A stretch of 64,000 bases of DNA from Minisyncoccota bacterium (GCA_035652395.1 DASRDX010000009.1:355739-419738); one strand, 5' to 3'; positions 1-16,630 are shown, counted from the first letter of the stretch. Notes: generated from the letters alone by a model not told the origin. Numbers and translations are program-made.

Positions 1-2
1 AT

Positions 3-1688
3 GCCGCCGGCGTGGTGATCTCCCCTATTCCTTTAACGGAAATTGTGCCACTTCAATATGACCCAAAAAGCACCGGCGAAAATGAGACCAGCAAGATCAT
101 TACTCAATATGACATGCACTCAGTGGACGAGAATAATGCCGGCCTTTTGAAGTTTGATTTTCTAGGGATTCGGAACTTGGCAATTCTCGCCGACGCCGTG
201 AGACTGGTTAAAGCTATTGAAGGAATCGAAGTTGATATTGAAAACGTCACTCTGGACGATAAAAAAACTTTTGAACTTTTGGCTAAGGGAGAGACGGTTG
301 GACTCTTTCAATTAAATGGAGCTGGCATGACTCGTTACTTAAAAGAGTTGAAACCTTCCACTATTCACGACATCAATGCCATGGTGGCTTTATATCGCCC
401 TGGACCGATGGAAGTAATTCCCGAATATATTCGCCGCAAGAATAGTCCTCGCCTGATTTCCTATCCCGATCCACGCATGAAAAAATATCTGGAAGAATCT
501 TATGGATTAATTGTTTATCAGGACGACCTTCTCTTTAGCGCCATCGAGCTCGCCGGCTACTCGTGGCTCGAGGCCGACAAATTTCGTAAAGCGGTAGGTA
601 AAAAGATTCCGAAGGAAATGGCTGCCCAGAAAGAAAAGCTGATTGAAGGTATTATTAAGAATGGTCAGACAAAGGAATTCGCCGAGAAATTATGGAAGCT
701 TTTTGAACCGTTTCAAGCTTATGGCTTTAACAAGGCTCATGCCGCAAGCTACGGCAAAGTGGCTTACCAGACTGCCTACATGAAGGCTAACTTCCCGTGT
801 ATTTATATGGCAGCGGTACTAACGGCTGAATCCGGCGACGTAGAGAAAATTGCGGAAATTATCAATGAATGCAAACGTATGGGCATTCCAGTGCTGCCGC
901 CGGATATTAACGAAAGCTTTGAAGATTTCACGGTGGTTAAGAAAGGCACTGACGGGGCCGAGTGTGACAAAATTCGTTTCGGATTGACCTGTATTAAAAA
1001 TTTTGGAGCCGGAATCGCTGCCACCATTATTAAAGAGAGAAAAGAAAACGGTAAGTTTAAATCATTGGAAGATTTTCTGAATCGAATCGTTGATCGCAAT
1101 CTAAATAAGAAGTCGCTGGAAGCTTTGATCAAAGCCGGAGCGATGGATCAGTTTGGCGATCGCGGATGTTTGCTGGCAAACATTGAAGATATTTTAGAGT
1201 ACAACAAAGAAAAGAATCGGGCACCGGCCGGCCAGGATTCCTTGTTCGGATCCTTTGCTGAAACGGTGGCTCTGCCGGCGCTTCGCTTGCGCGAAGCGCC
1301 TCCAGCCACGCCGGCCGAGAAGCTCCTCTGGGAAAAGGAGCTTCTCGGGCTATATGTAAGCGGGCATCCTTTAGACAAACATCGCGAGCGCTTGGAGAAG
1401 AAACAAACCAATATCACTAAGGTTAAGGCTGAACTAAAAGAAGGAATGCTGGCTGTCATTGAGGGAATCGTAGAAGAAGCTAAACAGATCCGCACTAAGA
1501 ATGGTTCGCCAATGTATTTTTTGAAGATTGCGGATTATAGCGGCAACATGGAAGTGGTAGTCTTTCCAAAAGTAACTGAAAAATACAGCTCCATCATCGC
1601 TCCGGAAAAATGTTTAGCTGTTAAAGGGCGTCTCTCCGGCCGCAACGGTGAGACTAGTATGGTGGCAGAAGCAATTAAGGAAATTTAA
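3..1688 (+). CDS. dnaE: DNA polymerase III alpha subunit, C-terminal portion. The 5' end lies outside the window.
   Basis: Reading frame is open from the window start. The translation (GLFQLNGAGMTRYL..., AMVALYRPGPME, OB-fold-like C-terminus) matches the DnaE C-terminal region. Confidence 0.85.
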   Translation, partial: AAGVVISPIPLTEIVPLQYDPKSTGENETSKIITQYDMHSVDENNAGLLKFDFLGIRNLAILADAVRLVKAIEGIEVDIENVTLDDKKTFELLAKGETVGLFQLNGAGMTRYLKELKPSTIHDINAMVALYRPGPMEVIPEYIRRKNSPRLISYPDPRMKKYLEESYGLIVYQDDLLFSAIELAGYSWLEADKFRKAVGKKIPKEMAAQKEKLIEGIIKNGQTKEFAEKLWKLFEPFQAYGFNKAHAASYGKVAYQTAYMKANFPCIYMAAVLTAESGDVEKIAEIINECKRMGIPVLPPDINESFEDFTVVKKGTDGAECDKIRFGLTCIKNFGAGIAATIIKERKENGKFKSLEDFLNRIVDRNLNKKSLEALIKAGAMDQFGDRGCLLANIEDILEYNKEKNRAPAGQDSLFGSFAETVALPALRLREAPPATPAEKLLWEKELLGLYVSGHPLDKHRERLEKKQTNITKVKAELKEGMLAVIEGIVEEAKQIRTKNGSPMYFLKIADYSGNMEVVVFPKVTEKYSSIIAPEKCLAVKGRLSGRNGETSMVAEAIKEI

Positions 1689-1718
1689 ATAAAAAGCCGT
1701 TTTAGCGGCTCATTCCAA

Positions 1719-2114
1719 TTACATATATGGCATGTAAACGTGGCGACGAAAATTCTTTCGACGTCTTCCTTTATGACGAGGAAACGGAATTTTTAATAAA
1801 GCAACCTTCTTCTCCAGTCGTTCGGTGTCAAGATACTCAACCATTGGTTTAAGCACTTCTCCCGGATTTCGATACTTATCCCAAGAGAGCGTTCTGCTTT
1901 CGCTCACTCTTCTTGAAAAAGAGTACACCGTATTCCCGCGTAAATCGATAAGAACATATTTAGAGTGATGACTGCGTCGAAAAATATGGATATCTTGCAG
2001 AATCAGTAATTCTGGATTTCCACCTTGATCGAGGAAGAGGCAATCTTTTCCATCATGAAGTTTTTCAAGTATATCGTGACGTTTTACGGCGCCCGCAAAG
2101 ACAGTAGTTTTCAT
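1719..2114 (-). CDS. Hypothetical protein with a strongly basic C-terminal tail.
   Basis: 131-aa ORF sits between dnaE and thrS. The C-terminus is FPRHKGRRRKNFRRH, suggesting nucleic-acid binding. No motif was recognised with confidence. Confidence 0.35.
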   Translation of the reverse strand: MKTTVFAGAVKRHDILEKLHDGKDCLFLDQGGNPELLILQDIHIFRRSHHSKYVLIDLRGNTVYSFSRRVSESRTLSWDKYRNPGEVLKPMVEYLDTERLEKKVALLKIPFPRHKGRRRKNFRRHVYMPYM

Positions 2115-2180
2115 CTAAATTGAAATTAGCACGGTCCTTTTGGGAAAGCAATTTTTAATAAAGTATGAACATGATAAGAT

Positions 2181-3935
2181 TTGCGTATGGAAAATAATGA
2201 GCAATTGTCTAAAATCAGGCATTCACTAGCCCATCTTCTGGCGGCGGCGGTTTTAGAATTGCACCCTGACACCCTGAATACTATTGGACCGGCCATTGAG
2301 AATGGTTTCTATTATGATTTTGATTTTGTCTCCTCTATTTTGGAGGCGGATTTGAAAAAGATTGAGAAGAAGATGAGAGAAATTTTTCCGACTTGGAAAA
2401 ATTTCTCTCACAAGGAAGTTGGCGCGGGCGAAGCCCGCGCTCTCTTTGCCGACAACCCCTACAAGTTGGAATTAATAGATGAGATCGAAAAGAAAGGCGA
2501 GAAAATCACTCTCTATACTTCCGGAAATTTCACTGATCTCTGTCGCGGCGGACACGTGGAAGATATACAAGATATTAATCCGAATGGATTCGAGCTTTCC
2601 CATTTGGCCGGCGCTTACTGGCGAGGTGATGAGAAAAACAAAATGCTGACGCGAATTTATGGTCTGGCTTTCAATAACAAAGACGAACTCGATAACTACA
2701 AAAAGCAACAGGAAGAAGCGGAAAAACGTGATCACCGAAAACTAGGCAAGGAATTAAAGATTTTCACTTTTGATGAAGATGTGGGTCCAGGTCTGCCCCT
2801 CTGGCTGCCGAACGGCGCCGTGATGATTGAAGAACTTGAGAAACTCGCTAAGGAGACTGAATTTCAGGAAGGCTACAGCCGAGTTCGCTCCCCTCACATT
2901 GCCAAAGAGTCAATCTATTTAAAGAGCGGTCATCTTCCCTATTACGAAGAAAGTATGTTCCCGCCAATGGAATATGAGGGCGGCAATTATTATTTGAAAG
3001 CTATGAATTGTCCGCATCATCACAAGATTTATGCCGCTCTTCGCCCCAGCTATCGTGATTTACCGCTTCGATTGGCTGAATATGGCACTTGCTATCGCCA
3101 TGAAAAATCCGGCGAGCTTTTTGGTTTAATGCGGGTAAGGTCGCTCCAAATGAATGATGCTCACATTTATTGCACTAAAGAGCAATTCGCTGATGAGTTT
3201 CGTCGAGTTAATGATATTTATTTGAAATATTTTAAGATTTTTGGGGTGGATAAATACCAAATGCGATTATCTACTCACGATCCGGAAAAGTTGGGACAGA
3301 AATTTGTAGATGAACCGGAGCTCTGGGAAGAAACGGAAAAAATGGTGCGAGATGTTTTGGTGGAATCGAAGATTCCCTTTGTGGAAGTCCCGAACGAAGC
3401 AGCATTTTACGGACCCAAAATTGATGTGCAGGTTTGGAGCGCCATTGGCCGCGAGTTTACTTTGGCTACCAATCAGGTGGATTTTGCCCAGCCTCGACGG
3501 TTTGATCTAACTTACGTTAATAAGAACGGCAAGGAAGAAACTCCTCTCTGCATTCATCGAGCCCCTCTCGGCACGCACGAGAGATTCATCGGCTTTCTGA
3601 TAGAACATTACGCCGGCGCCTTTCCACTTTGGCTTTCTCCAATCCAAGTGAAAATTCTACCTATTGGCGAGGATCATCTTGGTTACTCAAAAGAACTTTT
3701 TAAAGAATTGCATCAGGCTGGTATTCGAGCCCAAACGGATGAAAGTAATGAAAGTCTGGGCAAAAAGATTAGACAAACTAAAGTTGAGAAAGTTCCATAC
3801 TTTTTAGTTATTGGTGATAAGGAAGTGGAATCGCAGACGGTGACTTTAGAAAGCCGCGACAATGGCAATCAGGGATCAGTATCGTTAGCCGATCTCCTGA
3901 AGAGATTAGAAGAAGAGATTAAGACAAGAAAATAG
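2181..3935 (+). CDS. thrS: Threonine--tRNA ligase (class II).
   Basis: Class II aaRS motifs are present: HRKLGKEL, MNCPHHHKIY, RVRSLQMNDAHIYC. Length is 584 aa. Confidence 0.9.
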   Translation: MRMENNEQLSKIRHSLAHLLAAAVLELHPDTLNTIGPAIENGFYYDFDFVSSILEADLKKIEKKMREIFPTWKNFSHKEVGAGEARALFADNPYKLELIDEIEKKGEKITLYTSGNFTDLCRGGHVEDIQDINPNGFELSHLAGAYWRGDEKNKMLTRIYGLAFNNKDELDNYKKQQEEAEKRDHRKLGKELKIFTFDEDVGPGLPLWLPNGAVMIEELEKLAKETEFQEGYSRVRSPHIAKESIYLKSGHLPYYEESMFPPMEYEGGNYYLKAMNCPHHHKIYAALRPSYRDLPLRLAEYGTCYRHEKSGELFGLMRVRSLQMNDAHIYCTKEQFADEFRRVNDIYLKYFKIFGVDKYQMRLSTHDPEKLGQKFVDEPELWEETEKMVRDVLVESKIPFVEVPNEAAFYGPKIDVQVWSAIGREFTLATNQVDFAQPRRFDLTYVNKNGKEETPLCIHRAPLGTHERFIGFLIEHYAGAFPLWLSPIQVKILPIGEDHLGYSKELFKELHQAGIRAQTDESNESLGKKIRQTKVEKVPYFLVIGDKEVESQTVTLESRDNGNQGSVSLADLLKRLEEEIKTRK

Positions 3936-3942
3936 CCAAAAG

Positions 3943-3970
3943 AAAAAGGCTCGCAAAGCGAGCCTTTTTC
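3943..3970. terminator. Bidirectional intrinsic terminator hairpin between thrS and the convergent surface-protein gene.
   Basis: aaaaaggctcgc-aaa-gcgagccttttt. The perfect stem is flanked by an A-run and a T-run. Confidence 0.55.
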
Positions 3971-3992
3971 TTTTTATCTTGTAATCGTTTTC

Positions 3993-5354
3993 TTAAGCTA
4001 GTAATTTTTCAATTTTCTCTGAGTTAAGAGTGGCGTAATTGCCATCATTTCGAGAAACTTTACTGATCAAGGTGTTAAGCATTGATTCAGCGGCGCTCTT
4101 ATCAGTTCCGGTTCGAGCCATAATATTGGTCAAACCATCGCGAGAGATAAGGACATTGTTTTCTCGAGCCATGAAGGAAAGACTGTTTTCAAACTCTTCG
4201 GCGGTCACCTCTTCCTGAACTGGAGTATCAATTTCCGCCTCCGGAGTTTCCACTTCCGTATCAGAATCGAGACCCATTTCTGAAGTACTGATTCCGACGG
4301 CTGCTAAAGCTCCAACTTTTCGCTTCTGAATGATCATGTAGGCACCGAAGGCGCTCCACATGAAGAGTCCGAGGAAGAAGAGAGCCATCTTAAGATTCAT
4401 GCTGATGCCGGTAGCTGGAATTTGACTAAGGAAGACACCGGCGCTAGGCGTACCAGTAATCGGCTGCTGATAGACCGTAGTGAAAGCTGCCTGATTACCG
4501 TTTGGCTGAACATTGACTGAACAATTGGCAGTCACCTGTCGGCCATCTGAAGTTACGGTTACGTTTGCATTTCGAGTACCAGTGTTGTAGTAGGTATTTG
4601 AAACGCTTGGGCCGCTGCCGTAGACATCTCCGCTCCAAGAATATGAGTAGTTGCCATTTCCACCTGAAGCAATCGCTTGCCAAGTTACCGTGTTTCCAAC
4701 TAATGGGTTGGAAGGGTTAGCCGTACAATAAGCAGTTAAATTCTGGTTCTGATTATTGTTGCCCGCTGGAGTGTTAATAATAATAGTGTTCGTATTGTTG
4801 TTCACTGCAGTGGCAGTGGCACTTGAACTAGAGGTAGAATTTGAGTTGGAGAAATTATTATTAGCGTTTGTGTTTACGTTAGTAACCGGGGTGCTAGAAG
4901 GCGGATGATATGTCTGGGTTGGGGTGTAAGTTGGGTAAGAATAGTTTGGATATGAGTAACAGCTTCCACAGCCGTATGATCCATAACTGGAACCGCCGTA
5001 ATTTCCATAACTACCACAGCTATAATCACATGGGTTGTAAACATCATAAGTATCATATCCACAGTTATAGCTACAGTCTTGATATACATCTAGAGTGTCG
5101 CATCCGCCGTAGGAACAAGGATCATATGCATCGACATAACCAGTGTTATCAGCAGAGCCCCAGCCGGAGTCTACCCATCCCATATCACCACTAAAATTGT
5201 CTCCACCGTCAAAAGCCCAGCCTGAGTCATTCCATTCTTGAGCCGAAACCTTATGAGCCATGCCTAAGAAACCGACCATAAAGAGTCCTCCGACAATAAC
5301 CAAAATGGCCAAAATAGCCTTGGTTTTCTTGCTTAATTTAATTAATTTATTCAT
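3993..5354 (-). CDS. Type I membrane surface protein. It has a signal peptide, a Cys/Tyr/Gly-rich low-complexity region, an Asn/Ser-rich linker, a PKD-like Ig domain, a TM helix and a 110-aa cytoplasmic tail.
   Basis: N-terminal signal/TM KAILAILVIVGGLFMVGFLGMAHKVSA. Region CSYGGCDTLDVYQDCSYNCGYDTYDVYNPCDYSCGSYGNYGG. PKD-like motif YSYSWSGDVYG with NANVTVTSDGRQVTANCSVNV. TM helix ALFFLGLFMWSAFGAYMII. Confidence 0.55.
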   Translation of the reverse strand: MNKLIKLSKKTKAILAILVIVGGLFMVGFLGMAHKVSAQEWNDSGWAFDGGDNFSGDMGWVDSGWGSADNTGYVDAYDPCSYGGCDTLDVYQDCSYNCGYDTYDVYNPCDYSCGSYGNYGGSSYGSYGCGSCYSYPNYSYPTYTPTQTYHPPSSTPVTNVNTNANNNFSNSNSTSSSSATATAVNNNTNTIIINTPAGNNNQNQNLTAYCTANPSNPLVGNTVTWQAIASGGNGNYSYSWSGDVYGSGPSVSNTYYNTGTRNANVTVTSDGRQVTANCSVNVQPNGNQAAFTTVYQQPITGTPSAGVFLSQIPATGISMNLKMALFFLGLFMWSAFGAYMIIQKRKVGALAAVGISTSEMGLDSDTEVETPEAEIDTPVQEEVTAEEFENSLSFMARENNVLISRDGLTNIMARTGTDKSAAESMLNTLISKVSRNDGNYATLNSEKIEKLLA

Positions 5355-5440
5355 AATTTTTTATAACTAATTGTTAATAATTTCCATAAGTATACACCAA
5401 GCTGTACAATTTGTCAAGTCTGTTTTATTATAAAGAAGAT

Positions 5441-5466
5441 AGCGGACAACCCAAGGGTTGTCCGCT
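5441..5466 (-). terminator. Intrinsic terminator hairpin downstream of the 5486..6379 gene.
   Basis: agcggacaacc-caa-gggttgtccgct, with a perfect 11-bp stem. Confidence 0.5.
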
Positions 5467-5485
5467 ATTAATTTTTCGACTTTCC

Positions 5486-6379
5486 CTACAATTGCTTGAA
5501 GTGAATGTCGTTGTCGGCCGCGTATTCTTCGACTTCCTCGGTAGGAATCAATTGATCCCTCTTTAAGAAAGGCAACCCGTAAAAGCGCCCGTCGGGACTT
5601 TGTTTGATTCGACCATGAGCCATCAGATCGAGAGTAATAGCGTCGGGGATCAGCTTGCCGTACTTGGCAATGTACCAATCCACCACCGCTTTTGTCTCCA
5701 GTTCTTTGGAGGTAACCCATTCATGATGGAGGGCCTTATTTTCTCTGGGCGGCTCCCCATCGTTACTGTAGGCCGGCGGTTTTCCCTTGCGGGAAAAGAG
5801 AGCCGACTTTGTCATCTTGATGGTATTCGTGGGCGAACTTGCGGGTGTCGGAGATATTTTCCCCTGAACGCCTGGTTTGTTCACTTCCGCCAGCTGCCGA
5901 TTTTTTTCGGCTAACTGCCGATCCTTTTCGTCGAGCTCCTTTTGGAGCCTAGCCGTTTCTTTCTGACGGTCCGTGAGAGCGTCCTGCACCACTTGTTCCC
6001 CTTCGGGGTCTTCTTCCGAAGTAATCCCTTCTGGAGGTGGAGCGTTGTTGTCGATATCATTCGCCAACGCAGGATTCGATGAGTTTTCTCCGCTTGTCTG
6101 CGCCGGATTATTTGGAGTCACCGCCGCGACTGGGGTTGAAGCCACTTTAGGAGTTGGTGTTGCCTGAAGTAACTTTTGATCCTCGGCGTTAGGAACGCCC
6201 GCTATTTGGACAGAGGAGGAAGAGCGAAGTCGGGTGAAGCAAAATAGTATTGCCACCACGATTACCAGCCGGGTTACCCATCTGATCCATCGCGGACTTC
6301 CCTTCATCCTGAGAGCATCGAAGAATCGTTGAAACCGATTTTCTTTGATCGGTTGAGGGCCTTGCAAAATTGAATTCAT
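5486..6379 (-). CDS. Membrane-anchored (N-in, single TM) coiled-coil protein of unknown function, in the GC-rich island.
   Basis: TM helix VTRLVIVVAILFCF. Pro/Ala/Thr-rich linker. Coiled-coil QKETARLQKELDEKDRQLAEKNRQLAE. Conserved-looking C-terminal domain. Local GC is about 55%. Confidence 0.5.
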   Translation of the reverse strand: MNSILQGPQPIKENRFQRFFDALRMKGSPRWIRWVTRLVIVVAILFCFTRLRSSSSVQIAGVPNAEDQKLLQATPTPKVASTPVAAVTPNNPAQTSGENSSNPALANDIDNNAPPPEGITSEEDPEGEQVVQDALTDRQKETARLQKELDEKDRQLAEKNRQLAEVNKPGVQGKISPTPASSPTNTIKMTKSALFSRKGKPPAYSNDGEPPRENKALHHEWVTSKELETKAVVDWYIAKYGKLIPDAITLDLMAHGRIKQSPDGRFYGLPFLKRDQLIPTEEVEEYAADNDIHFKQL

Positions 6380-6468
6380 AAAACTTTCCCCTTCTAGGTT
6401 TGGTGTTGTTGAGAGCTAACTGCGGTAAATATTAGCATAATTTATCTTAAAAGTCAAGGATAATAAAA

Positions 6469-6494
6469 ATGACCTGTGTTTTAGCACAGGTCAT
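6469..6494 (-). terminator. Intrinsic terminator hairpin downstream of the 6502..8163 gene.
   Basis: atgacctgtg-ttttag-cacaggtcat. Confidence 0.45.
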
Positions 6495-6501
6495 GAATGA
6501 G

Positions 6502-8163
6502 CTAGTTTCGAGCCCCCAAAAAATCCTTTATTTTTCTGAGCCGATTTGGAGGTTGAGCTCTTTGAGAGCTGTCCCTTCTTTCCCCTTTTGATTCTTCGGG
6601 CTCTTCAGCAATTTCGATTTGATGTTCAGGTGGCTTGAGAGCCGGTGGATTAACCGTAGGTTTTTGGCGTTTTTTGCGCCTACCGTAGGTAATCGGTGGG
6701 CTTTCGACCGATTCTTCCTTGATATCGACCACAAAACCGTGGTGATTTTTTTCAACCACATAAGTCTTGGTGGTTGATAAAGGTGACGGCACTTCGGCAA
6801 TTGGATCAAAGACTAGCTTGTTTCCAACAAAGATTCGCCCCACCTCATCCTCTCGAACTTTTGGAGGTTCGGGGCGATGCTGGACAAATTGGGCGTCCAA
6901 GATCTTGGTTGGGGAAATGTTCGGATAAAAGACCTCGACCAAGACTTCCGAAATGGTTAGTCGGTCAGGATATCTCTCCAGAACTTTTTTCGCCCCTTTT
7001 CGGAATGAATGTTTCAATTCTTCCCGAAGAGCTTGGCGCTCATCATAGGATAGAACTCTTTCCCTTCGGACAACTGTCTTCGCAAGTTCTTCTTCAACAA
7101 TGTGGTCGAGGACTCGACCCACCAAGTTGCGAAATTCCGAAAAGGTCAGAGCGGCTGGAACGGTAGTTCTCAACCGAATTCCCCGTGTCTCAGTATTTAC
7201 TAAAACCCAAGGACATCGCCCGAGGTTGATCTGCCGTTGCTTTAATTTTTCCTGCCATTCCGCTGACGGATTGGCCGGGGCGGCAAACAGACCGGAAACA
7301 TCCACTTGGAATTTCCGAATCTCCGGTTTTAGCCGTTCAAGTGTCCTTTCCGCTTCGGCAAGGTGAGCTTGACCAGTAGCCTCGTCACCTGTTCGAAGCA
7401 TTTCAATGCCCCGAATATAGGTTTCGATCATCGGCTTCGTCAGTTCCTCAATTTCAGGTATACACCCGAGGGAGCTGGTATCAATGCCATTCCCATCGGC
7501 ATCGGCCGCTAACCCCGCGGTCGAGCCGGTAATGCCTGTAACAGTGGATCCCCTGCGGATGCCGTCGGTTGGACCCGTGAAGTAAACCTGCCCGTGCAAT
7601 ACCAGATGACCGGAAGTGGCTGTAATGTTGAGAAGAAGATCTGAAGGGATCCGGCCCGTATTAGTAGCCGTATCGCCCTCAACCATGGGATTAACAAACG
7701 AAACTTGACGAAGGCCATAGCCGGTCAATTTTGTATGCGCTCCTGTTTGAGGGTTTGCTTCCTCAAAGGCACGCTTTGCCGTATCCCTGATTCGATCAAC
7801 ACTGTGGCGGTTGCTGTAGTACTGACTGTGAGTGTCGACCTCAATTACTGGAGTTGGGGCTTGATCCTTCGGTGCCTCAAGCGGCGGAGCGGCAATGTTT
7901 GGGGCATGACCGTTTCCCTGATCGCTGGAAGCGGTGTAAGAAGCCCATTCAATTGCAGTTTTGGTGATGAATGGATGACTTAATGCCATTTGAAGTGGCA
8001 TCTCGTTCGCCTCCGACCATTTCACCATTACAGAACGGAATGTCTGCCGAAGCATGGTGCCTTTTCCGTTAACTGGCATTGGCACTGCTTTGCCATTCCA
8101 GGTTGCGGTCTTTAATTCGGTGTAGGTAAGATTGGCTAAAGTAGTTATTTTGTCTATGTTCAT
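6502..8163 (-). CDS. Large hypothetical protein (553 aa) with no recognised domain, in the GC-rich island.
   Basis: Long intact ORF at about 58-62% local GC with its own downstream terminator. Composition is Arg/Ala/Gly/Pro-rich. No catalytic motif was identified by eye. Confidence 0.5.
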   Translation of the reverse strand: MNIDKITTLANLTYTELKTATWNGKAVPMPVNGKGTMLRQTFRSVMVKWSEANEMPLQMALSHPFITKTAIEWASYTASSDQGNGHAPNIAAPPLEAPKDQAPTPVIEVDTHSQYYSNRHSVDRIRDTAKRAFEEANPQTGAHTKLTGYGLRQVSFVNPMVEGDTATNTGRIPSDLLLNITATSGHLVLHGQVYFTGPTDGIRRGSTVTGITGSTAGLAADADGNGIDTSSLGCIPEIEELTKPMIETYIRGIEMLRTGDEATGQAHLAEAERTLERLKPEIRKFQVDVSGLFAAPANPSAEWQEKLKQRQINLGRCPWVLVNTETRGIRLRTTVPAALTFSEFRNLVGRVLDHIVEEELAKTVVRRERVLSYDERQALREELKHSFRKGAKKVLERYPDRLTISEVLVEVFYPNISPTKILDAQFVQHRPEPPKVREDEVGRIFVGNKLVFDPIAEVPSPLSTTKTYVVEKNHHGFVVDIKEESVESPPITYGRRKKRQKPTVNPPALKPPEHQIEIAEEPEESKGERRDSSQRAQPPNRLRKIKDFLGARN

Positions 8164-8221
8164 TCGATTCCTTTTCTAATCGCTTTTTATCACTTTTTAT
8201 TAAAATGTCAATCAAAATAAA

Positions 8222-8249
8222 AAGATTCTCGTTTTAAAACGAGAATCTT
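8222..8249 (-). terminator. Palindromic terminator downstream of the bactofilin gene.
   Basis: aagattctcgtttt/aaaacgagaatctt, a perfect 14-bp palindrome. Confidence 0.45.
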
Positions 8250-8260
8250 GAAATTGGGAG

Positions 8261-8671
8261 CTAGGGAGTTGCCGCGGAGGCTGGGGCACTCGAAGACTGA
8301 GCAGTACTGGCCCCAGGTTTTGGTCCCTCTGGCTTTTGACTCGCCTGGATAAGCTTGCCAGTAAGTTGAGCCGTGGGAGACGTCGCGATGATTCTTTCGT
8401 AATTAACGTCTCCAGTAACCCTGGCATTTGGACCGAAGCCGACTGTCTTGGCGGTGACGACGGCATTAACTTCACCGTCAATCTGAACGTCCGGGGCGAT
8501 AATTTCGCCTTTGACGTGGGCATCTTTGGTAATCTCGAGCTGACAGCCGTTTTTACTTATGAGCTGGCCTTCCAAGATGCCTGCGAAGATCAATTTTTTA
8601 GAAAAGGTGATGATTCCTTTGATTTCCGTGCCTTTTTGGATGACATTGTCACCATTCGTATTTCCATTCAT
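8261..8671 (-). CDS. Bactofilin (polymer-forming cytoskeletal protein, DUF583 beta-helix) with an Ala/Ser/Pro-rich C-terminal tail.
   Basis: Matches the bactofilin repeat pattern: KGTEIKGIITFSKKLIFAGILEGQLIS...VKGEIIAPDVQIDGEVNAVVTAKTVGFGPNARVTGDVNYERIIATSPTAQLTGKL. Confidence 0.7.
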   Translation of the reverse strand: MNGNTNGDNVIQKGTEIKGIITFSKKLIFAGILEGQLISKNGCQLEITKDAHVKGEIIAPDVQIDGEVNAVVTAKTVGFGPNARVTGDVNYERIIATSPTAQLTGKLIQASQKPEGPKPGASTAQSSSAPASAATP

Positions 8672-8780
8672 ATGTTTCCTTTGGTTTGATTTTGATTGGA
8701 AAGCCTGTATAGAACTTCCAAGTCCTTATTATCACAAGATTTAGAAAAGTCAAATATATAATCCCGTCTAAAATAAAAAT

Positions 8781-8806
8781 GGCCAATTAGCTAGAGCTAA
8801 TTGGCC
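8781..8806 (-). terminator. Intrinsic terminator hairpin downstream of the 8828..9511 gene.
   Basis: ggccaattagc-taga-gctaattggcc, followed on the minus strand by a T-rich run. Confidence 0.5.
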
Positions 8807-8827
8807 AGTGAGATCAACGCTTTTCGA

Positions 8828-9511
8828 CTATGGAGTCGGCGTTGTTAGATTTCTCTGGTATTCATCCACCTTCGCTTTCAAGCCTTCGGCGTACTTCCTC
8901 CAGCCGGTGGTATTGGCATTGGCTTGTTTAGCTTTGTTCTCCCAGAAAGCCGATTGTTCCGCCCAATATTTTGCTCGGTTTTCGGCATCGGAAGCGTTTG
9001 AGGCTTTCCCTCTCAAACGCAATATTTCCCGATCTTTGGCGGCAGAATCTTTTTTTTCTTGCGCCAGATCACCTTCCGCTTTGTCTCTGTCGCTTTCAGC
9101 CTGAGCTTTATCGCGTTCCGCCCGCTCTTTTTGATCCTTCCAGTCTTGCATCACTCTTTGGAAGGCGGCGTCAACTTGACCCTTTGGAGTCTCGGCGATA
9201 TTGTTGGTTTTTTCCGAGTCTTCCGGCGGCGGAGTATTTGTTCCAATCTCCTGAACCAATTTCTGTTTTTCGGTAGGTAAAGCCTTCTCAATGTCTTTAT
9301 CCTTTTTTACAAGATCCGGGTCCAATTGCTGAACGACCGGAGGTGTCTTTGAACCGGTGGGAGTGGCGGGTGGACTTGTGGCTGAAGCATCGGCTGTCGC
9401 CGTTCGAGACGAAGTGGCGGATTTGTGACTCGGTTTCTGATCTGCCACCGCCACAAGTGGAAGAGCACAGATGATGAGAAAAAGTAAATTGCTAAAGAAC
9501 TTGCGTTTCAT
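8828..9511 (-). CDS. Secreted coiled-coil protein of unknown function, in the GC-rich island.
   Basis: Signal peptide FFSNLLFLIICALPLVAVA. Ser/Thr/Pro-rich linker. Lys/Asp/Glu/Ala-rich coiled-coil region. Confidence 0.5.
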   Translation of the reverse strand: MKRKFFSNLLFLIICALPLVAVADQKPSHKSATSSRTATADASATSPPATPTGSKTPPVVQQLDPDLVKKDKDIEKALPTEKQKLVQEIGTNTPPPEDSEKTNNIAETPKGQVDAAFQRVMQDWKDQKERAERDKAQAESDRDKAEGDLAQEKKDSAAKDREILRLRGKASNASDAENRAKYWAEQSAFWENKAKQANANTTGWRKYAEGLKAKVDEYQRNLTTPTP

Positions 9512-9616
9512 TAATACCTCCTGATTTCAATTTTGGGTGTTCCGGAACTTCCGAAACTAGTTATCCCATTTCGGTAACTATCACAACTTATTTAAAAAGT
9601 CAAGTCTCTGGAGGGA

Positions 9617-10279
9617 TCAGCTCTTCCCGATCGGGGCGGTGCCGGCGTAGGTGGCGACGACGACGTAGCGATCTTCCTTAGCGCCGAAACTGTTACAGGT
9701 TGAGAGAGTCAAAATGTTTTGTTTGGTTGAGAAGCTGACGTAAGCGTTAGTATCTTTTTCCAATTTCACTGAGGCGACGGTGTAAAAATAAACTCTGTCT
9801 TTAGTAAGAACTTTAATCTGATCTCCTTCTTTTAAATTGTGAATGTTGTTGAAAACTTGATAAGCCTTGTTGTTCACCACTTTGAAACCGGTGGAGTGGC
9901 CGAAGATGAACATGTTGCCATAGCCTGGCAATCCTGATCCGGGATAATGCACCGCTCCTTCCGTGAGTGCGTTATCAAGCGTGGTATTACCAGTGCTCGA
10001 GGGATTAATAACTTGATAATTTAGACCGATGACGTCAGATTGAATGCGAAGCGGCACTTGATCAGTGGGCGGCAAGGGATTTGGATTCTGAGGATTATTT
10101 TCACCGGTGATGCTTTCAATGGAATTCTCGGAAAGCTGGTTTAAGATATTGGGTGTACCTGTTTGTTCTTTTAATTCGGTTGGAATTAGACCAAAAGCAT
10201 AGAGAACGACAAAAGTAACCAAAAAAATTCCCAAAAATAAAAAAGAGAAGGTGGCTTCCGGACGTTTATACCATTTCAT
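9617..10279 (-). CDS. Sortase (transpeptidase), membrane anchored.
   Basis: N-terminal TM helix. His motif MFIFGHSTG. Catalytic TLSTC motif (TLxTC). Downstream conserved Arg in RYVVVATYAG. Confidence 0.8.
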   Translation of the reverse strand: MKWYKRPEATFSFLFLGIFLVTFVVLYAFGLIPTELKEQTGTPNILNQLSENSIESITGENNPQNPNPLPPTDQVPLRIQSDVIGLNYQVINPSSTGNTTLDNALTEGAVHYPGSGLPGYGNMFIFGHSTGFKVVNNKAYQVFNNIHNLKEGDQIKVLTKDRVYFYTVASVKLEKDTNAYVSFSTKQNILTLSTCNSFGAKEDRYVVVATYAGTAPIGKS

Positions 10280-11685: not shown

Positions 11686-13791
11686 CTATATATCAATATT
11701 AGCCAACTTGGCGTTTGATTGTATAAACGACTTGCGGCTTGGTACATCCGTACCCATTAAAATCTCAATTACTTTATCGGCCGCTTCCGCATCTTCGATA
11801 TTTACCTGCTTCAAAACTCGATTGTTTGGATCCATGGTAGTCTCGCCGAGCTCTTCTGCATTCATCTCTCCAAGACCTTTGTAGCGCTGAATGGCGATCT
11901 TTTTCTTCTTCTCTGCGCCTTTTTCTTTCTTATTTTTTGTTCCTTCCTCTTCTGGCTGCTCGCTTTCAGCTTCCTCTTCCCCTTCTTCACTGGCTCCTTC
12001 CACTGGTTCGGCCACTTCCACTTTCTCCCGAGTCAAGAACTTATCTTTTTCTTCTTCGGTATAAAAATAAAGTAATTCTTTTCCATATTTCACTTTATAA
12101 AGTGGCGGCTGGGCAATGTAAACAAATCCATTTTCAATCAATGGCCGGAAGTAACGATAGAAAAGAGTCAAAATAAGAGTCCGGATGTGGGCTCCGTCAA
12201 CGTCGGCATCAGTGGCAATAATAATTTTGTGATAGCGCAGCTTGGAAATATCGAAGGTGTCCCCGATGGCAGTGCCGATGGCAATCACCAGATTTTTAAT
12301 TTGTTCTGAAGCCAGCATCTTATCGAGGCGAGCGCGTTCAATATTTAGGATCTTGCCGCGAAGCGGCAAGATGGCCTGCGTTCGGCGATCGCGTCCCATC
12401 TTGGCCGTGCCACCGGCCGAATCTCCTTCCACGATAAAGAGTTCTGACTCGCTGGCTTCTTTGGACTGACAGTCGGCTAGCTTTCCCGGCAAAGTCATAC
12501 CCTCAAGGGCACCTTTGCGTAGAATTGAATCTTTGGCGGCTTTGGCGGCTTTGCGAGCCTTTAAAGCCAATAAAGACTTGTTAACAATAGATCTGGCATC
12601 ATCGGGATTCTCTTCCAAGAAGGCGGAAAAAGCCTCCCCGAAAACCGTAGTGACAGCCGATTGAGCTTCCACACTTCCGAGTTTGGCCTTAGTCTGACCT
12701 TCGAATTGAATCTCCCGCAATTTTACAGAGACGACAGCCGTTAATCCCTCCAAAACATCATCACCGGTAAAATTGTCCTCTGATTCCTTAATGATATTAG
12801 CTTTGCGCCCGTAAGTGTTTATAGTTCGAGTCAGAGCGGTTTTAAATCCAGTTAGGTGCGTTCCTCCTTCGGGAGTACTGATGTTGTTGGCAAAACTTAC
12901 TACTCGTGAAGATATGTCATCAACATACTGGAGAGCCACCTCCACCGATTCCACTCCTTCAGCTTTTTTCTCCACATAAAAAATGTTCTTGTGAATTGGC
13001 TTTTGGAGCTGATTGTAGAATTTAATGAGAGAGAGTAATCCTCCTTCAAAGTAAAAAGTTTGTGATGGAGCCTCGATCTCCAGTTCTCTGAAATAAAAGA
13101 CTTTATCGGTGTCTATCTTCTCTTTAACCTCTCTAGCATCAATCATGGAAATGCGCAGACCTTTTACCAAATAGGCTTGTTGCCGCATATGAGAAACGAC
13201 ACGGGAGAAATCAAAATTGATTTCCTTGAAGATTTCCGGATCGGGTTCAAAAGTTACAATAGTTCCCGATTGTTTAGTGCTGCCAATTTTTTTGACGGCC
13301 GCCTTTCGTTTGCCTTTGGAATATTGCTGAACGTAAATTCCCCCCTCTTTGTGAACAATTACCTCGGTGAAGACTGAAAGAGCGTTTACTACTGAAGCGC
13401 CGACTCCGTGTAAACCACCTGAAACTTTGTAGCTACTATTTTCACCACCAAATTTTCCGCCGGCGTGCAAAGTGGTCATGATGGTCTCCAGTGCCGAAAC
13501 TTTAGTTTGTTTGTGCATGTCCACCGGAATACCTCGGCCATTGTCCGCCACTCTCACTCGATTTCCTGGGAGCAGAGCCACTTCAATGTCATTGGCAAAA
13601 CCACCCATAGCTTCGTCTCGAGCATTGTCAAAGATTTCCGTAATTAGATGGTGGAGGCCGTCAGGACCGGTAGTACCAATGTACATTCCCGGACGCTTTC
13701 GAACAGGCTCAAGGCCTTCTAGGACAGTAATGTCGGCGGCTCCGTAGGAGCCGCCTTTTTTCTCTTCTTTTTCAGCTGATTTTTTGGCCAT
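11686..13791 (-). CDS. gyrB: DNA gyrase subunit B, with a roughly 40-aa acidic/Lys-rich insertion near the C-terminus.
   Basis: GHKL ATPase and TOPRIM motifs: LEGLEPVRKRPGMYIGTTG, LHAGGKFGG, LFIVEGDSAGGTAKMGRDR, IATDADVDGAHIRTLILT, IQRYKGLGEMNAEEL. Confidence 0.9.
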   Translation of the reverse strand: MAKKSAEKEEKKGGSYGAADITVLEGLEPVRKRPGMYIGTTGPDGLHHLITEIFDNARDEAMGGFANDIEVALLPGNRVRVADNGRGIPVDMHKQTKVSALETIMTTLHAGGKFGGENSSYKVSGGLHGVGASVVNALSVFTEVIVHKEGGIYVQQYSKGKRKAAVKKIGSTKQSGTIVTFEPDPEIFKEINFDFSRVVSHMRQQAYLVKGLRISMIDAREVKEKIDTDKVFYFRELEIEAPSQTFYFEGGLLSLIKFYNQLQKPIHKNIFYVEKKAEGVESVEVALQYVDDISSRVVSFANNISTPEGGTHLTGFKTALTRTINTYGRKANIIKESEDNFTGDDVLEGLTAVVSVKLREIQFEGQTKAKLGSVEAQSAVTTVFGEAFSAFLEENPDDARSIVNKSLLALKARKAAKAAKDSILRKGALEGMTLPGKLADCQSKEASESELFIVEGDSAGGTAKMGRDRRTQAILPLRGKILNIERARLDKMLASEQIKNLVIAIGTAIGDTFDISKLRYHKIIIATDADVDGAHIRTLILTLFYRYFRPLIENGFVYIAQPPLYKVKYGKELLYFYTEEEKDKFLTREKVEVAEPVEGASEEGEEEAESEQPEEEGTKNKKEKGAEKKKKIAIQRYKGLGEMNAEELGETTMDPNNRVLKQVNIEDAEAADKVIEILMGTDVPSRKSFIQSNAKLANIDI

Positions 13792-13853
13792 TTATAGCCA
13801 TATTTTAGCATTTTTAGCCTCTTCTGCCAAGCTCAAATCGGCCATAATTAGCC

Positions 13854-14174
13854 TTAATTTGAGCCATTATTTGGTAATTTTTTGAGGTCTAATTCCATTA
13901 CGCCATCAAGTCGGTTAATTTCCCCCACTTTTTCTTTTCCGAGCATTAAAATTCCGCCCGTATCGTCAAGGGTGCAGACAGTTAAAATCTTAGTTTCGAG
14001 ATTTTCGAGAAGCTTTTCGCGAGTTTGACGAATTTCTTCATTAACAGAACCGGCTGAATTTGGTTTGAAAATAGAAACAGTCAAAATCCCATCCTTAATG
14101 TGAAAAATCTTATCTCCACTTTCAGATTCGACGAAACCAAAATCTGAAAGGATTACCCGAATTTTATTCTCCAT
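13854..14174 (-). CDS. Small hypothetical protein, possibly roadblock/LC7-like.
   Basis: 106-aa ORF between gyrB and pheS. The pattern ILTVCTLDDTGGILMLGKEK resembles roadblock-fold regulators. The assignment is weak. Confidence 0.35.
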   Translation of the reverse strand: MENKIRVILSDFGFVESESGDKIFHIKDGILTVSIFKPNSAGSVNEEIRQTREKLLENLETKILTVCTLDDTGGILMLGKEKVGEINRLDGVMELDLKKLPNNGSN

Positions 14175-14181
14175 TGTTTAA

Positions 14182-15330
14182 TTATTGTCTTCTAATTTCT
14201 CCTCCAAATTCTTCTTCCGTCATCTCCTCAACACGAACATGAAGAGCGTTCACCTCTTCGTTAGTTAAAGTGCGATTGAGATCACGATAAGTTAAGCGCC
14301 AAGTGTAGCTCTGGCGATCGGTTCCGAACTTATTGTCGTTTTCATATTTATCGGTCAGCTTCATCTCCTCAATTTGATCTCCCACAATGTCGCGAATGCG
14401 GTCAAAGTAAGTATTTAAAACCAAATTTTTTGAAGCGACGAAAGAGATGTCACGGAGTACCGGCGGAAACTTGCTGACCTCCTTGAATTTAGTACCGAGT
14501 TTAAGTTGCTTTCTGACTCTCTCATCTTCTGACCACAGCAATCTAATATCCGGCAATTCCATGGAGACAATGGCCAAGCGCTCCAGACCGAAGCCAAAAG
14601 CCCAACCATTCCATTTAGTTGAATCAACTCCGAGCTTATCTAAGACGCTTCCTTTAACCACACCACTTCCAAGCACTTCTATCCATTTGTCGGCCGGTTT
14701 GATTTCCATTTCAATTGATGGATCAGTGTAAGGAAAATCATCCGGATTAAATCTTCGCTCCATCTGCGTTCCAAAAATGGCGTCGGCAATGGCATTTAAA
14801 ACTTTTTTTAATTCTTCCACCCCGATATTCTCTTTTGCTTTTGGAGCCAAGTACCAACCGTCAAGCTGATGAAAAACATTCATGTGGTTACGATCAATTT
14901 CATCCTTGCGGTAAACCTTGCCGAAGGAAAAACAACCGACTGCTTCACCCTTGCTCATCCTTTCCTTCACATCTTTCTCGTTCAAATAGTAATACCACAT
15001 CACTGTAGTGTGAGTTCTCAAAATATTTTCTTCGTTCAAGTAATATGTGTCGGATTTGCTACGGGCCGGATGATCTTTGGGAAAATCAAAAAGGTCAAAG
15101 CTGATGCTCTGCGGTACCACTTCAGGCGTTTCAATAACATCAAAATCCTTGAACTCCGGCCGAGCCAAAATCCTCTCTACCATTTCGGCGATCGGGCTTC
15201 CGATCTTTCGGGAAAGATCGGGCATATTTAAATAGCGTTTTATTCTTTGGCTTTCAGGATCATTTCGTCCATCGAGAGATGCGATGATTTTGTCCTGTTC
15301 TTTTTTAGATACTTGGAAAGTGTTCTTCAT
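14182..15330 (-). CDS. pheS: Phenylalanine--tRNA ligase alpha subunit.
   Basis: Class II motif 3 region WNGWAFGFGLERLAIV, plus HTTVMWYYYL and FSFGKVYRKDEID. Confidence 0.85.
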   Translation of the reverse strand: MKNTFQVSKKEQDKIIASLDGRNDPESQRIKRYLNMPDLSRKIGSPIAEMVERILARPEFKDFDVIETPEVVPQSISFDLFDFPKDHPARSKSDTYYLNEENILRTHTTVMWYYYLNEKDVKERMSKGEAVGCFSFGKVYRKDEIDRNHMNVFHQLDGWYLAPKAKENIGVEELKKVLNAIADAIFGTQMERRFNPDDFPYTDPSIEMEIKPADKWIEVLGSGVVKGSVLDKLGVDSTKWNGWAFGFGLERLAIVSMELPDIRLLWSEDERVRKQLKLGTKFKEVSKFPPVLRDISFVASKNLVLNTYFDRIRDIVGDQIEEMKLTDKYENDNKFGTDRQSYTWRLTYRDLNRTLTNEEVNALHVRVEEMTEEEFGGEIRRQ

Positions 15331-15382
15331 GTTGGGGGGGGTTTTTGACTTTCGGCGACGTTGATTATATCATGAAATAACT

Positions 15383-16630
15383 ATGCATTTGGCCGTTTTT
15401 TCCGAAACTATTACTTATATCCTCCTTTTTCTCACCCTTTATTGGGAAGTCTTTTTATTGATGACTTTTTTAGAAAAGAAGGGACAAATTCAAAAAGAGG
15501 AGTCTATGATATTAAGTGATTTTCCGGCTGTGACAGTGTTGGTTCCGTGTTTCAACGAAGAGAGTACGATATCCAGCACGATAGAGTCGCTTCTATCCCT
15601 AAATTATCCAAAAGATAAATTGGAGATTTTAATTATAGATGATGGCAGTACTGATCAGACATTGTCAGTGGCAAAAAAATTTGAGATTGAATCTAATGTT
15701 CGCGTTTACCACAAAGAAAATGGCGGTAAGTTCACTGCCCTCAATTTTGGTTTGGATCTGACCAGAACAGAATTTGTCGGTTGCCTCGACGCCGATTCTT
15801 TTGTTCATCCGGATGCCCTGAAAAATCTAATGCCTTATTTTACGGACCCGAAGACTATGGCTGTCACTCCTTCTCTAAAAATTTACAATCCGAATAGCAG
15901 CGTTATCCGGATGATACAGAACGTGGAATACAATCTTGGAATTTTTGTCCGAAAGATTTCCAGTCTTTTAAATGCTATTTACGTTACTCCCGGCCCGTTT
16001 TCTATTTTCCGCATGCAGGTTTATCGGGACCTTGGAAGGTATCACCATGCTCACAATACCGAGGATATGGAGATGGCTTTGCGCATGCAAAGCCATCATT
16101 ATCGGATTGTAAACGCCCATAAAGCGGTGGTTTACACTGTGGGCCCAAAGACCCTGCCAAAGCTTTATAAACAGCGCGTTCGTTGGACCCACGGCTTCCT
16201 AGAAAACATTAAGGATTACCGTCATTTAATTCTCAATCCAAAATACGGCAATCTCGGTCTTTTAATTCTGCCTCTAGCTTTTGTCTCTTTCTTTGCTACT
16301 CTGTATCTAGTCTTAGTTTCTTATTACGGCTTGGTGCGGATTATTATCAAAGATGTCATCCAGATTCAGACGGTCGGCTTTCATCCAGCCTGGCAGAGCC
16401 TTCATTTCAGTTGGTTTTTTGTTAACACAGCTACTCTCTCAATTATTAATGTCCTGATCGCTTTTTTAACTTTGATAATTATTTTCGCCGGCAAGCGACT
16501 AGCCGGAGTGAAGGACCGACGAGTGATGGATCTGGTTTATTCTTTCTTTTTATATTCGTTTATCGCGCCGCTATGGCTCACTAAAGCTTTTTATAACAGT
16601 CTTTTCTCAAGGAGAACTCCGTGGAGATAG
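15383..16630 (+). CDS. Family 2 glycosyltransferase, integral membrane, of the processive (HAS/NodC/chitin-synthase-like) type.
   Basis: GT-A motifs VLVPCFNEE, IIDDGSTD, GCLDADSF. Processive-GT signature QRVRWTHG (QxxRW). TM helices at both ends. Length is 415 aa. Confidence 0.8.
   Translation: MHLAVFSETITYILLFLTLYWEVFLLMTFLEKKGQIQKEESMILSDFPAVTVLVPCFNEESTISSTIESLLSLNYPKDKLEILIIDDGSTDQTLSVAKKFEIESNVRVYHKENGGKFTALNFGLDLTRTEFVGCLDADSFVHPDALKNLMPYFTDPKTMAVTPSLKIYNPNSSVIRMIQNVEYNLGIFVRKISSLLNAIYVTPGPFSIFRMQVYRDLGRYHHAHNTEDMEMALRMQSHHYRIVNAHKAVVYTVGPKTLPKLYKQRVRWTHGFLENIKDYRHLILNPKYGNLGLLILPLAFVSFFATLYLVLVSYYGLVRIIIKDVIQIQTVGFHPAWQSLHFSWFFVNTATLSIINVLIAFLTLIIIFAGKRLAGVKDRRVMDLVYSFFLYSFIAPLWLTKAFYNSLFSRRTPWR

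Follow-up and report, generated by a model that had tools for sequence, protein, structure and literature searches.

A probably acquired four-gene cassette with a divergent bactofilin between the sortase and surface-protein genes of a Patescibacterium

Bactofilins have a beta-helical fold and form non-polar filaments by a self-assembly that requires no nucleotide; another bacterial polymer, MreB, has the bitopic partners RodZ and MreC. We describe here a bactofilin-encoding island of four genes (NCBI locus tags VFA52_02190 to VFA52_02205) at positions 5355-9616 of a 64,000-nt stretch of DNA, termed the window (GCA_035652395.1, DASRDX010000009.1:355739-419738), which lies within a 462,702-bp contig of a metagenome-assembled genome (MAG) of Candidatus Paceibacterota (candidate phyla radiation (CPR)/Patescibacteria). 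The host is ultra-small and uncultured. Most bactofilins, albeit not all, carry a membrane-targeting sequence (MTS) with a consensus of about MFSK/RK, in which F2 and K4/K7 are critical (PMC12448750). In Caulobacter, the bitopic client PbpC can use its cytoplasmic tail to tether BacA devoid of its MTS (PMC12448750). In Helicobacter, CcmA, a bactofilin, is recruited via the cytoplasmic N-terminus of Csd5, a bitopic protein without enzymatic function that contacts the wall through its ectodomain (PMC9507126). In the BacNOP-PadC system of Myxococcus xanthus, cited within PMC12448750, a soluble adaptor is bound to the bactofilin tail. As for the Patescibacteria, their horizontal gene transfers and genomic islands are documented, and are mostly within the phylum, mostly old and often without a recovered donor (PMC12455944). 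In the literature searched, we found nothing linking bactofilins to the Patescibacteria, whose cytoskeletal organization is essentially unstudied.

The island is probably an acquired, coherent unit of four genes. It is set apart from the native genes of the window by its guanine plus cytosine (GC) content, its synonymous codons, the amino-acid style of its products, leaders with a Shine-Dalgarno (SD) motif and a shared upstream element, TTGAC[AT]TTT. An initial annotation, made from the bare sequence, had proposed horizontally acquired DNA, or a compositionally biased module, for envelope or cytoskeletal function on the strength of a GC jump. That idea survives on synteny, codon usage, gene starts and the shared element, but not on the evidence given for it: suspicion of a foreign origin is reasonably supported by evidence other than GC, and the headline GC feature is largely overestimated. 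The four minus-strand genes that it listed were found as open reading frames (ORFs) of 297, 553, 136 and 227 amino acids (aa), and the two flanking genes that it named were confirmed by ORFs and a PF04203 match. The genes are as follows (GC3, GC content at third codon positions; TM, transmembrane):
9617-10279, minus strand: sortase gene, native boundary gene (PF04203, E=4.5e-21; synteny)
8828-9511, minus strand: gene of the 227-aa protein (GC 49.3%, GC3 0.48)
8261-8671, minus strand: bactofilin gene, 136 aa (PF04519)
6502-8163, minus strand: gene of the 553-aa protein (ORF)
5486-6379, minus strand: gene of the 297-aa bitopic (type II) membrane protein (GC 51.2%, GC3 0.545, the window maxima for both)
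3993-5354, minus strand: gene of a Cys/Tyr-rich surface protein, native boundary gene (IPATG motif, TM segment and basic patch, KRK)

The locus was compared with 80 species-representative loci anchored on GyrB (70-80% identical), all from Patescibacteria MAGs. Conserved near gyrB were thrS, located downstream in 59 of the 80, the sortase gene (19), the Cys/Tyr-rich surface protein gene (18) and the gene of a 418-aa protein (17). The initial annotation had raised the question of the presence or absence of the island in related genomes; flanking synteny was conserved, and none of the four island genes was detected by tblastn (E≤1e-4) in any of the 80 loci. In four empty-site relatives (L008, L011, L024 and L031) the surface-protein gene comes straight after the sortase gene, and in four other loci (L019, L021, L032 and L045) thrS does. 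The island and its spacers (4,262 nt) therefore stand where other loci have a short intergenic spacer. The content of this slot varies across many relatives, with different single genes in different ones. In L028 (GyrB 75% identical, locus GC 39.6%) it is a sharply bounded 1.2-kb block (14701-15900) of 60-65% GC between flanks of 29-38%, carrying a 361-aa ORF (14777-15862, plus strand) with a GC3 of 0.76 as compared to 0.27 for gyrB. The encoded protein has the architecture of the 297-aa island product, namely a cytoplasmic N-terminus, one TM segment, an Ala-rich coiled coil and a C-terminal domain; homology between the two was not detectable. The slot of L073 holds the gene of a 314-aa secreted protein (12587-13531, plus strand) with a GC3 of 0.72 against about 0.49, and that of L044 a 224-aa ORF (13468-14142) of 65% GC with a strong SD. 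The slot contents of L028 and L073 are unmistakably foreign, and it looks as if foreign genes have landed repeatedly in this position downstream of the sortase gene. In some higher-GC relatives (L071, 17192-18514; L067, 17839-18504), the stretch just before thrS carries an insertion of one or two paralogous genes of nucleotidyltransferase-like proteins, with weak similarity to Polbeta and NTP_transf_2, a further sign of a variable neighbourhood.

The most discriminating new observation setting the island apart is its gene-start grammar. Native genes of the window are essentially without SD motifs (median anti-SD duplex energy -0.1 kcal/mol), whereas all four island genes have SD-bearing leaders (-5.6 to -11.6 kcal/mol; Mann-Whitney p=0.0013). 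The difference persisted (p=0.006) when each native gene was granted its best SD at any candidate start within the first 30 codons. Conversely, a TATAAT-like -10 box was found 4-12 nt before the start codon in 15 of 40 native genes and in none of the four island genes. The motif TTGAC[AT]TTT, which was defined from the island sites themselves, occurs five times in the window when both strands are counted, and four of these occurrences lie upstream of the island genes, one at each, in the right orientation and at a distance of 48-92 nt from the ATG (P about 1e-4, post hoc); none was found at native genes of the window. A composite TTGACWTTT-N9-13-TGATA occurs three times, every time upstream of an island gene. 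As the initial annotation had stated, a perfect-hairpin terminator with a T-run follows each of the four genes, and each is, to judge from these signals, an independent transcription unit. The elements are, by descending position:
9579-9603, minus strand: promoter-like upstream element of the 227-aa gene, TTGACTTTTTAAATAAGTTGTGATA, with a leader of about 60 nt and SD AGGAGG at 9517-9522 (-11.6 kcal/mol)
8780-8807, minus strand: hairpin terminator after the 227-aa gene, 12-bp stem and T-run
8730-8753, minus strand: promoter-like upstream element of the bactofilin gene, TTGACTTTTCTAAATCTTGTGATA, with SD AAGGAA at 8676-8681 (-5.6 kcal/mol)
8222-8249, minus strand: hairpin terminator after the bactofilin gene, perfect palindrome of 12-14 bp and T-run
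8188-8211, minus strand: promoter-like upstream element of the 553-aa gene, TTGACATTTTAATAAAAAGTGATA, with SD AAGGAA at 8168-8173 (-5.6 kcal/mol)
6469-6494, minus strand: hairpin terminator after the 553-aa gene, 10-bp stem and T-run
6429-6457, minus strand: promoter-like site of the 297-aa gene, beginning TTGACTTTT (TTGACT, 17 nt, TAATAT, with TG upstream)
6387-6394, minus strand: SD of the 297-aa gene, GAAGGGGA (-7.9 kcal/mol)
5439-5468, minus strand: hairpin terminator after the 297-aa gene, perfect stem of 13-14 bp and T-run

Canonical sigma-70 spacing was seen at the 297-aa gene only, the other three sites being non-canonical. For this reason, and since hexamers resembling those of sigma-70 are generic, we rejected the idea that the sites are host-type promoters and hence a sign of nativeness. 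The leader of the 227-aa gene contains, downstream of its promoter-like element and upstream of its SD, a near-palindrome (9531-9556, minus strand, TTTCGGAAGTTCCGGAA) that could be an operator or an RNA structure; neither it nor the island had a match in Rfam. On the native side, starts such as those at 10279, 13791, 29927/28929, 32125, 34367 and 27836 display the SD-less or -10-proximal pattern, which suggests that leaderless transcription is widespread in the source genome. In the literature searched, we found nothing joining leaderless transcription, Shine-Dalgarno motifs and Patescibacteria.

Codon usage and base composition also distinguish the island, to different degrees. Pooled synonymous usage gave G=121, as compared to 62 ± 12 for native genes taken as 33 contiguous sets of similar size, the highest of which reached 86 (z about 4.9), the island favouring C-ending over T-ending two-fold codons (NNC over NNT) and using more NNG codons. 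The interval has a GC content of 47.5%, the remainder of the window 43.5%. Of all spans of 4.2 kb it is the richest in GC (within the top 1% of sliding windows, at about 2.2 standard deviations). The four island genes hold GC ranks 1-4 among 46 ORFs, the fourth place by a margin of 0.0001; the probability is 2.6e-4 that the top four would be adjacent and 1.3e-3 that four adjacent genes would fall within the top five. The GC anomaly thus exceeds chance, albeit modestly. The initial annotation had reported 55-62% GC across the interval, a range above the measured mean and not reached even by the richest 1-kb (51.5%) and 300-nt (54.3%) windows. The 60-nt blocks that it cited as examples are tails of the distribution: 17 blocks of the window, mostly outside the interval, have at least 37 G+C, and 35 have at most 17. 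By count, block 7501-7560 is 38/60 GC, and not 37/60 as noted earlier. Nor is the rise a sharp contiguous jump, since it is restricted to gene bodies (49.3-51.2%, native coding GC being 43.7 ± 2.8%), whereas the five island spacers are AT-rich, with 27-38% GC as compared to a mean of 39% for native spacers, which none of them exceeds. The island proteins are rich in Arg, Glu, Lys, Ala and Pro, whereas the adjacent native envelope proteins are Arg-poor and rich in Asn, Ser, Thr and Gly.

The identification of the bactofilin by the initial annotation was borne out by PF04519 (58.8 bits with a cut-off of 27.9, E=6.7e-16, residues 10-106 on profile positions 2-96 of 98) and by matches in the PDB to BacA (2N3D, E=9.5e-5) and to the Thermus bactofilin (6RIA, E=9e-4). 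The domain is divergent and is followed by a Pro/Ala/Ser-rich C-terminal tail. BacA residue F130, at the polymerization interface, is opposite Leu103, which would be a conservative replacement, in a phmmer alignment that is weak at this point. A canonical MTS is absent from the N-terminus, MNGNTNGDNV (MNGNTNGDNVIQKG), which has no Phe at position 2 and no Lys at positions 4 or 7.

The other three products are without recognizable domains. The 553-aa protein, as initially described, matched none when compared with Pfam, NCBIfam, PHROGs, PADLOC and PDB sequences. Its residues from about 117 to 400 form a conserved core, and its C-terminal tail, which is disordered, basic and Pro-rich, closes with a short helix (RKIKDFLGARN). 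The initial annotation had spoken of three envelope proteins, which fits the 297-aa and 227-aa products but probably not this one: it has neither TM segment nor signal peptide and is most likely cytoplasmic. A bactofilin-like repeat within its Gly-rich core was looked for, and no similarity was found. A likeness of its C-terminal tail, and of that of a homologue, P0003, to MinD-type amphipathic membrane-targeting helices is no more than a lead; the hydrophobic-moment test was non-discriminating (90th-94th percentile within their own proteins, reference tails scoring low). The 297-aa product fits its description as a type II membrane coiled-coil protein: a basic cytoplasmic N-terminal tail of about 29 residues, which includes a short helix, is followed by a TM helix (about 30-53), and a linker rich in Pro, Thr and Ala then leads to a long helix (125-166) and to a C-terminal region of about 90 residues. 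The topology is predicted as N-in, C-out, with seven Arg/Lys in residues 1-33 and a predicted local distance difference test score (pLDDT) of about 86 for the TM helix; residues 170-297 had no match in Pfam, NCBIfam or PDB sequences and are modelled with pLDDT <50. The 227-aa product likewise agrees with the secreted coiled-coil protein announced: an N-terminal hydrophobic stretch (residues 3-27, ...PLVAVA/DQ) resembles a signal, a linker rich in Pro, Thr and Ala follows, and the C-terminal half is charged, helical and coiled-coil-like. Neither of these two products matched Pfam, NCBIfam, PHROGs or PADLOC, and PDB sequence searches were non-significant. Over 65 residues, consisting of PPPE... 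and then a charged helix, the two are similar to each other (E=0.006, 38% identity), which could reflect common origin or mere compositional likeness. A sortase sorting signal (motif, hydrophobic segment and basic tail) was found in none of the four island proteins, the only motif match being NPQTG at residue 137 of the 553-aa protein, with no TM segment after it.

These three proteins have hardly any known relatives. Among 5.8 billion sequences, at the sensitivity of a word index, the bactofilin and the 553-aa protein retrieved their own clusters only. When 1.84 billion cluster representatives were searched exhaustively by HMMER, the 553-aa protein retrieved only itself and P0003 (731 aa, E=1.2e-5); the two align by pairwise BLASTP (2e-15, 25% identity over 308 aa) and, by this similarity, constitute a two-member family. 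A profile of both again retrieved the query's own cluster only in a word-indexed search. P0003 is encoded on a 5-kb contig (L081, positions 1-5086, SRR13214015, about 53% GC) with the gene order mreB (bona fide; PF06723, E=1.5e-76), P0003 and the gene of a bitopic membrane protein of 427 aa that has repeats rich in Ala, Pro and Lys. Each of the three proteins is a singleton in a 15-billion-protein collection. This order of polymer, 553-like protein and bitopic protein matches that of bactofilin, 553-aa and 297-aa proteins in the window, a parallel that, with two members only, is suggestive but not conclusive. The L081 proteins had no match to the MreC, MreD and RodZ families. Scans of metagenome contigs with the profile of the 553-aa family, and others anchored on the MreB of L081, gave no match, and exact look-ups of the 553-aa protein and of the bactofilin (P0002) gave no encoding contig on record. 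The 90%-identity clusters of the 297-aa and 227-aa proteins (the latter recorded as HZS43011.1) hold this MAG and SRR5581483 only.

Taken as a whole, the best explanation is an acquired, lineage-specific cassette that lies in a variable slot and would build a bactofilin-based assembly at the envelope, a view that we hold with moderate confidence. A number of observations weigh against it. From the amino-acid content of each protein and the window's own codon usage, we computed that amino-acid composition contributes +2.8 to +4.1 of the +5 to +7 GC points by which each gene is raised, and synonymous choice +1.3 to +4.1; the Ala/Pro/Arg/Glu-rich composition yields about 45% of the excess in coding GC for the 297-aa gene and 55-75% for the other three. 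For GC3 the z-scores are +4.4 (297-aa gene), +2.3, +2.7 and +1.7, native genes being at 0.2 ± 1.45 with a maximum of 3.0, so that only the 297-aa gene lies clearly beyond the native range. Two giant surface-protein genes of the window are equally deviant in codon usage, in the opposite GC3 direction. Dinucleotide delta* and tetranucleotide distances of the island are ordinary, 35% and 23% of equal-sized windows being at least as deviant. A few native envelope genes also bear SD-like motifs and, among slot inserts of relatives, a strong SD is present in L073 and L044 and lacking in L028 and L068. The closest relatives are distant (GyrB at most 80% identical), so that absence of the island from them is scarcely informative on timing and loss elsewhere is possible. 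There is no integrase-like ORF or tRNA near the island, the only tRNA of the window being at 18951-19024, and the flanking repeats seen are short and at chance level. Three of the four genes yielded neither a donor nor a homologue, and hence there is no phylogenetic proof of transfer. On the functional side, the model rests on gene adjacency, predicted topology and a two-member family; homology was not detectable among the bitopic proteins of the window (297 aa), L081 (427 aa) and L028 (361 aa). The AlphaFold2 model of the 553-aa protein, built from a two-sequence alignment, was unusable (pLDDT 32.5), and the single-sequence model of the 297-aa protein was confident for helices 15-26, 29-53 and 125-166 only and uninformative elsewhere.

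Several of these points are what would be expected if the four genes were native and fast-evolving and had never been transferred, an alternative that we regard as unlikely. Their GC content would then be a by-product of Ala/Pro/Arg/Glu-rich disordered and coiled-coil sequence together with codon bias, and their absence from relatives would reflect rapid divergence or loss in a variable surface-gene neighbourhood. The share of the GC excess that is due to amino acids fits this alternative, as do the native-like oligonucleotide signatures, the AT-rich spacers, the lack of mobility genes and of a donor, the variability of the slot in many relatives and the SD-like motifs of some native envelope genes. 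The initial annotation had itself conceded that horizontal transfer would become less convincing if low-complexity amino-acid composition accounted entirely for the GC excess at typical GC3; more than half of the excess is indeed compositional, but the GC3 of the 297-aa gene is outside the native range. The codon-usage check that it proposed, made against native genes of the window, likewise gave a divided answer, with atypical synonymous usage overall and a GC3 outlier in one gene only, and the tetranucleotide signature that it suggested computing proved ordinary. A native origin is nevertheless difficult to reconcile with the presence of a bactofilin domain, which cannot arise de novo and has no paralogue in the window, or with the pooled synonymous usage. 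It also leaves aside the start architecture and upstream element that all four genes have in common and native genes of the window lack, the absence of every island gene from the 80 relatives and the foreign DNA in the same slot of L028 and L073.

An acquired origin would also be compatible with four unrelated cargo genes gathered separately in an insertion hot spot, the bactofilin being unconnected to its neighbours. The genes are monocistronic, each with its own promoter-like site and terminator, their GC3 spreads from 0.47 to 0.55 and the slot harbours different single genes across relatives. We nonetheless judge separate gathering improbable: TTGAC[AT]TTT is common to all four genes and otherwise nearly absent from the window, the genes are on the same strand, resemble one another in GC and all have comparable SD-led starts, a similar segment recurs in the 227-aa and 297-aa proteins, and L081 repeats the polymer, 553-like, bitopic order.

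A decayed prophage, plasmid or integrative element, or an anti-phage defence island, would equally appear as a lineage-specific insertion of ORFans in a repeatedly invaded slot, and the L028 insert has very weak PHROG and PADLOC similarities. The four island proteins, however, had no match in PHROGs or PADLOC and no relatives among 2.9 million viral contigs. In 72,556 plasmids, a tblastn search made with the 553-aa protein, alone of the island proteins, and with the L028 insert gave no match. The initial annotation had already noted the lack of an integrase, a tRNA or a flanking direct repeat, and this stands: no integrase, no convincing repeat and no tRNA nearer than 18951. A remnant of a mobile element or defence island is therefore very unlikely. 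An assembly or binning artefact joining DNA of another organism, conceivable for an island known from a single contig of a metagenome-assembled genome, is scarcely credible, given that both flanks are on one 462-kb contig and syntenic with relatives, that the spacers are AT-rich as in the host, that identical island-protein fragments occur in an independent gene catalogue from read set SRR5581483, and that a double chimeric join leaving both flanking genes intact is improbable.

In the favoured account, the cassette would have been gained horizontally, landing between the sortase gene and its likely substrate gene. The acquisition would not be recent, or the donor would have had only moderately higher GC and was quite possibly another Patescibacterium; an old or within-phylum acquisition is the best reading. 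The donor search suggested by the initial annotation named no lineage, the single remote homologue of the 553-aa protein being the one on L081. DNA uptake via competence and pili is a plausible route of acquisition, and the window encodes two small proteins with the type IV pilin N-terminal methylation motif (PF07963; 24604-25086 and 25416-25934, minus strand).

The remaining window is ordinary chromosome, with a dnaE fragment, thrS, gyrB, pheS, rpsB, tsf, a release factor (RF) gene and rplY, genes of glycolysis and the pentose-phosphate pathway, gatB, obg, the pilin-like genes and the two giant surface-protein genes. These giant ORFs (34447-40254 and 40500-46835, minus strand; 1,935 and 2,111 aa; GC content at second codon positions 0.51-0.53, GC3 0.38-0.39) have the most deviant di- and tetranucleotide signatures of the window. 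The Cys/Tyr-rich protein encoded at 3993-5354 is likely, from its sequence features, to be the cognate substrate of the neighbouring sortase. We checked 11 surface proteins, comprising this one and homologues in relatives (L002, L008, L011, L024, L028, L031, L056, L072 and L073 among them): ten have [IVL]P[AY]TG followed by a TM segment (..GL..WSA..AY..) and basic residues. Unusually, 48-373 more residues lie C-terminal to the sorting region, and the family probably represents a cognate sortase substrate with an additional cytoplasmic tail. A 24-nt repeat (D5, 83% identity) links 5464-5487, just past the stop of the 297-aa gene, with 3997-4020, a copy that forms part of the 3' end of the surface-protein gene and is translated there as ...EKIEKLLA. 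As an attachment (att) site it was judged to be at chance level; it could be the trace of a displaced gene copy and is probably due to chance.

As to function, we tentatively propose that the cassette builds a bactofilin-based assembly at the cell envelope. Lacking an MTS, the bactofilin would need a partner to reach the membrane, and the best candidate for such a tether is the 297-aa bitopic protein, acting via its short basic cytoplasmic tail. Its coiled-coil ectodomain would project outward, where the secreted 227-aa coiled-coil protein could associate, and the cytoplasmic 553-aa protein might be an adaptor or regulator of the polymer. A broader and decidedly doubtful conjecture is that the cassette exemplifies a portable, hitherto undescribed cytoskeletal anchoring module, in which an interchangeable polymer (bactofilin here, MreB on L081), a member of the 553-aa/P0003 family and a bitopic coiled-coil protein spread horizontally into ultra-small episymbiotic bacteria, beside sortase and surface-protein genes, and remodel the envelope or an attachment structure. 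On present evidence, the island is an ordinary small acquired cluster with a divergent bactofilin, the function of which we can only infer. If the model were true, it would provide a first candidate for a bactofilin-based envelope assembly in these ultra-small bacteria, and a tiny new family, that of the 553-aa protein and P0003, with both members encoded beside a cytoskeletal polymer gene. Two markers of foreign genes also emerge for such genomes where GC and oligonucleotide signals are weak: gene-start grammar, SD-led as opposed to leaderless-looking, and a repeatedly invaded slot between a sortase gene and its substrate gene.

Among the closest described counterparts is CcmA-Csd5 of Helicobacter pylori, in which a bactofilin likewise occurs together with a type II bitopic protein having a short cytoplasmic N-terminus, a TM segment, a helical or coiled-coil stretch and a small C-terminal ectodomain. 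In both cases the bactofilin would be unable to reach the membrane alone, as was shown for CcmA (PMC9507126) and as the missing MTS suggests here. The 297-aa protein, however, has no sequence similarity to Csd5 and no detected SH3 or peptidoglycan-binding domain, the island has no M23 peptidase (Csd1/Csd2) or MurF link, and the host is a monoderm-like CPR bacterium. BacA-PbpC of Caulobacter crescentus provides the precedent that a short-tailed bitopic protein can tether a bactofilin and replace the MTS, polymerization and membrane binding cooperating in this process (PMC12448750). It differs in that BacA has the MTS MFSKQAK whereas the island bactofilin begins with MNGNTNGDNV, and in that PbpC is a class A penicillin-binding protein whereas the 297-aa protein has no enzymatic domain; nor are the genes neighbours in the same manner. 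It is only in topology that the candidate tether would resemble Csd5 and PbpC, since no ectodomain that binds or synthesizes peptidoglycan was found in it. For the 553-aa protein, BacNOP-PadC, cited within PMC12448750, shows that a bactofilin can be encoded together with a cytoplasmic adaptor devoid of enzymatic function, the role proposed here, and both bactofilins have an unstructured C-terminal tail as a possible docking site. The 553-aa protein differs in having neither homology to PadC nor ParA/ParB partners, its role being purely inferred. The MreB-RodZ/MreC system compares with L081, where mreB, a 553-like protein and a bitopic protein form the same layout of polymer, adaptor and bitopic partner, but the L081 proteins are outside the MreC, MreD and RodZ families and the polymer of the window is a bactofilin and not an actin homologue. 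Finally, the island resembles those described in Patescibacteria (PMC12455944) as a small, lineage-specific, compositionally deviant block in a streamlined CPR genome. With most such transfers being old and from within the phylum, their composition has largely ameliorated and the donor often escapes recovery. The island differs from those described in carrying no mobility genes and a cytoskeletal and envelope cargo, as opposed to a metabolic or restriction-modification one, and in splitting a conserved sortase-substrate pair at a slot that has been invaded in other species too.

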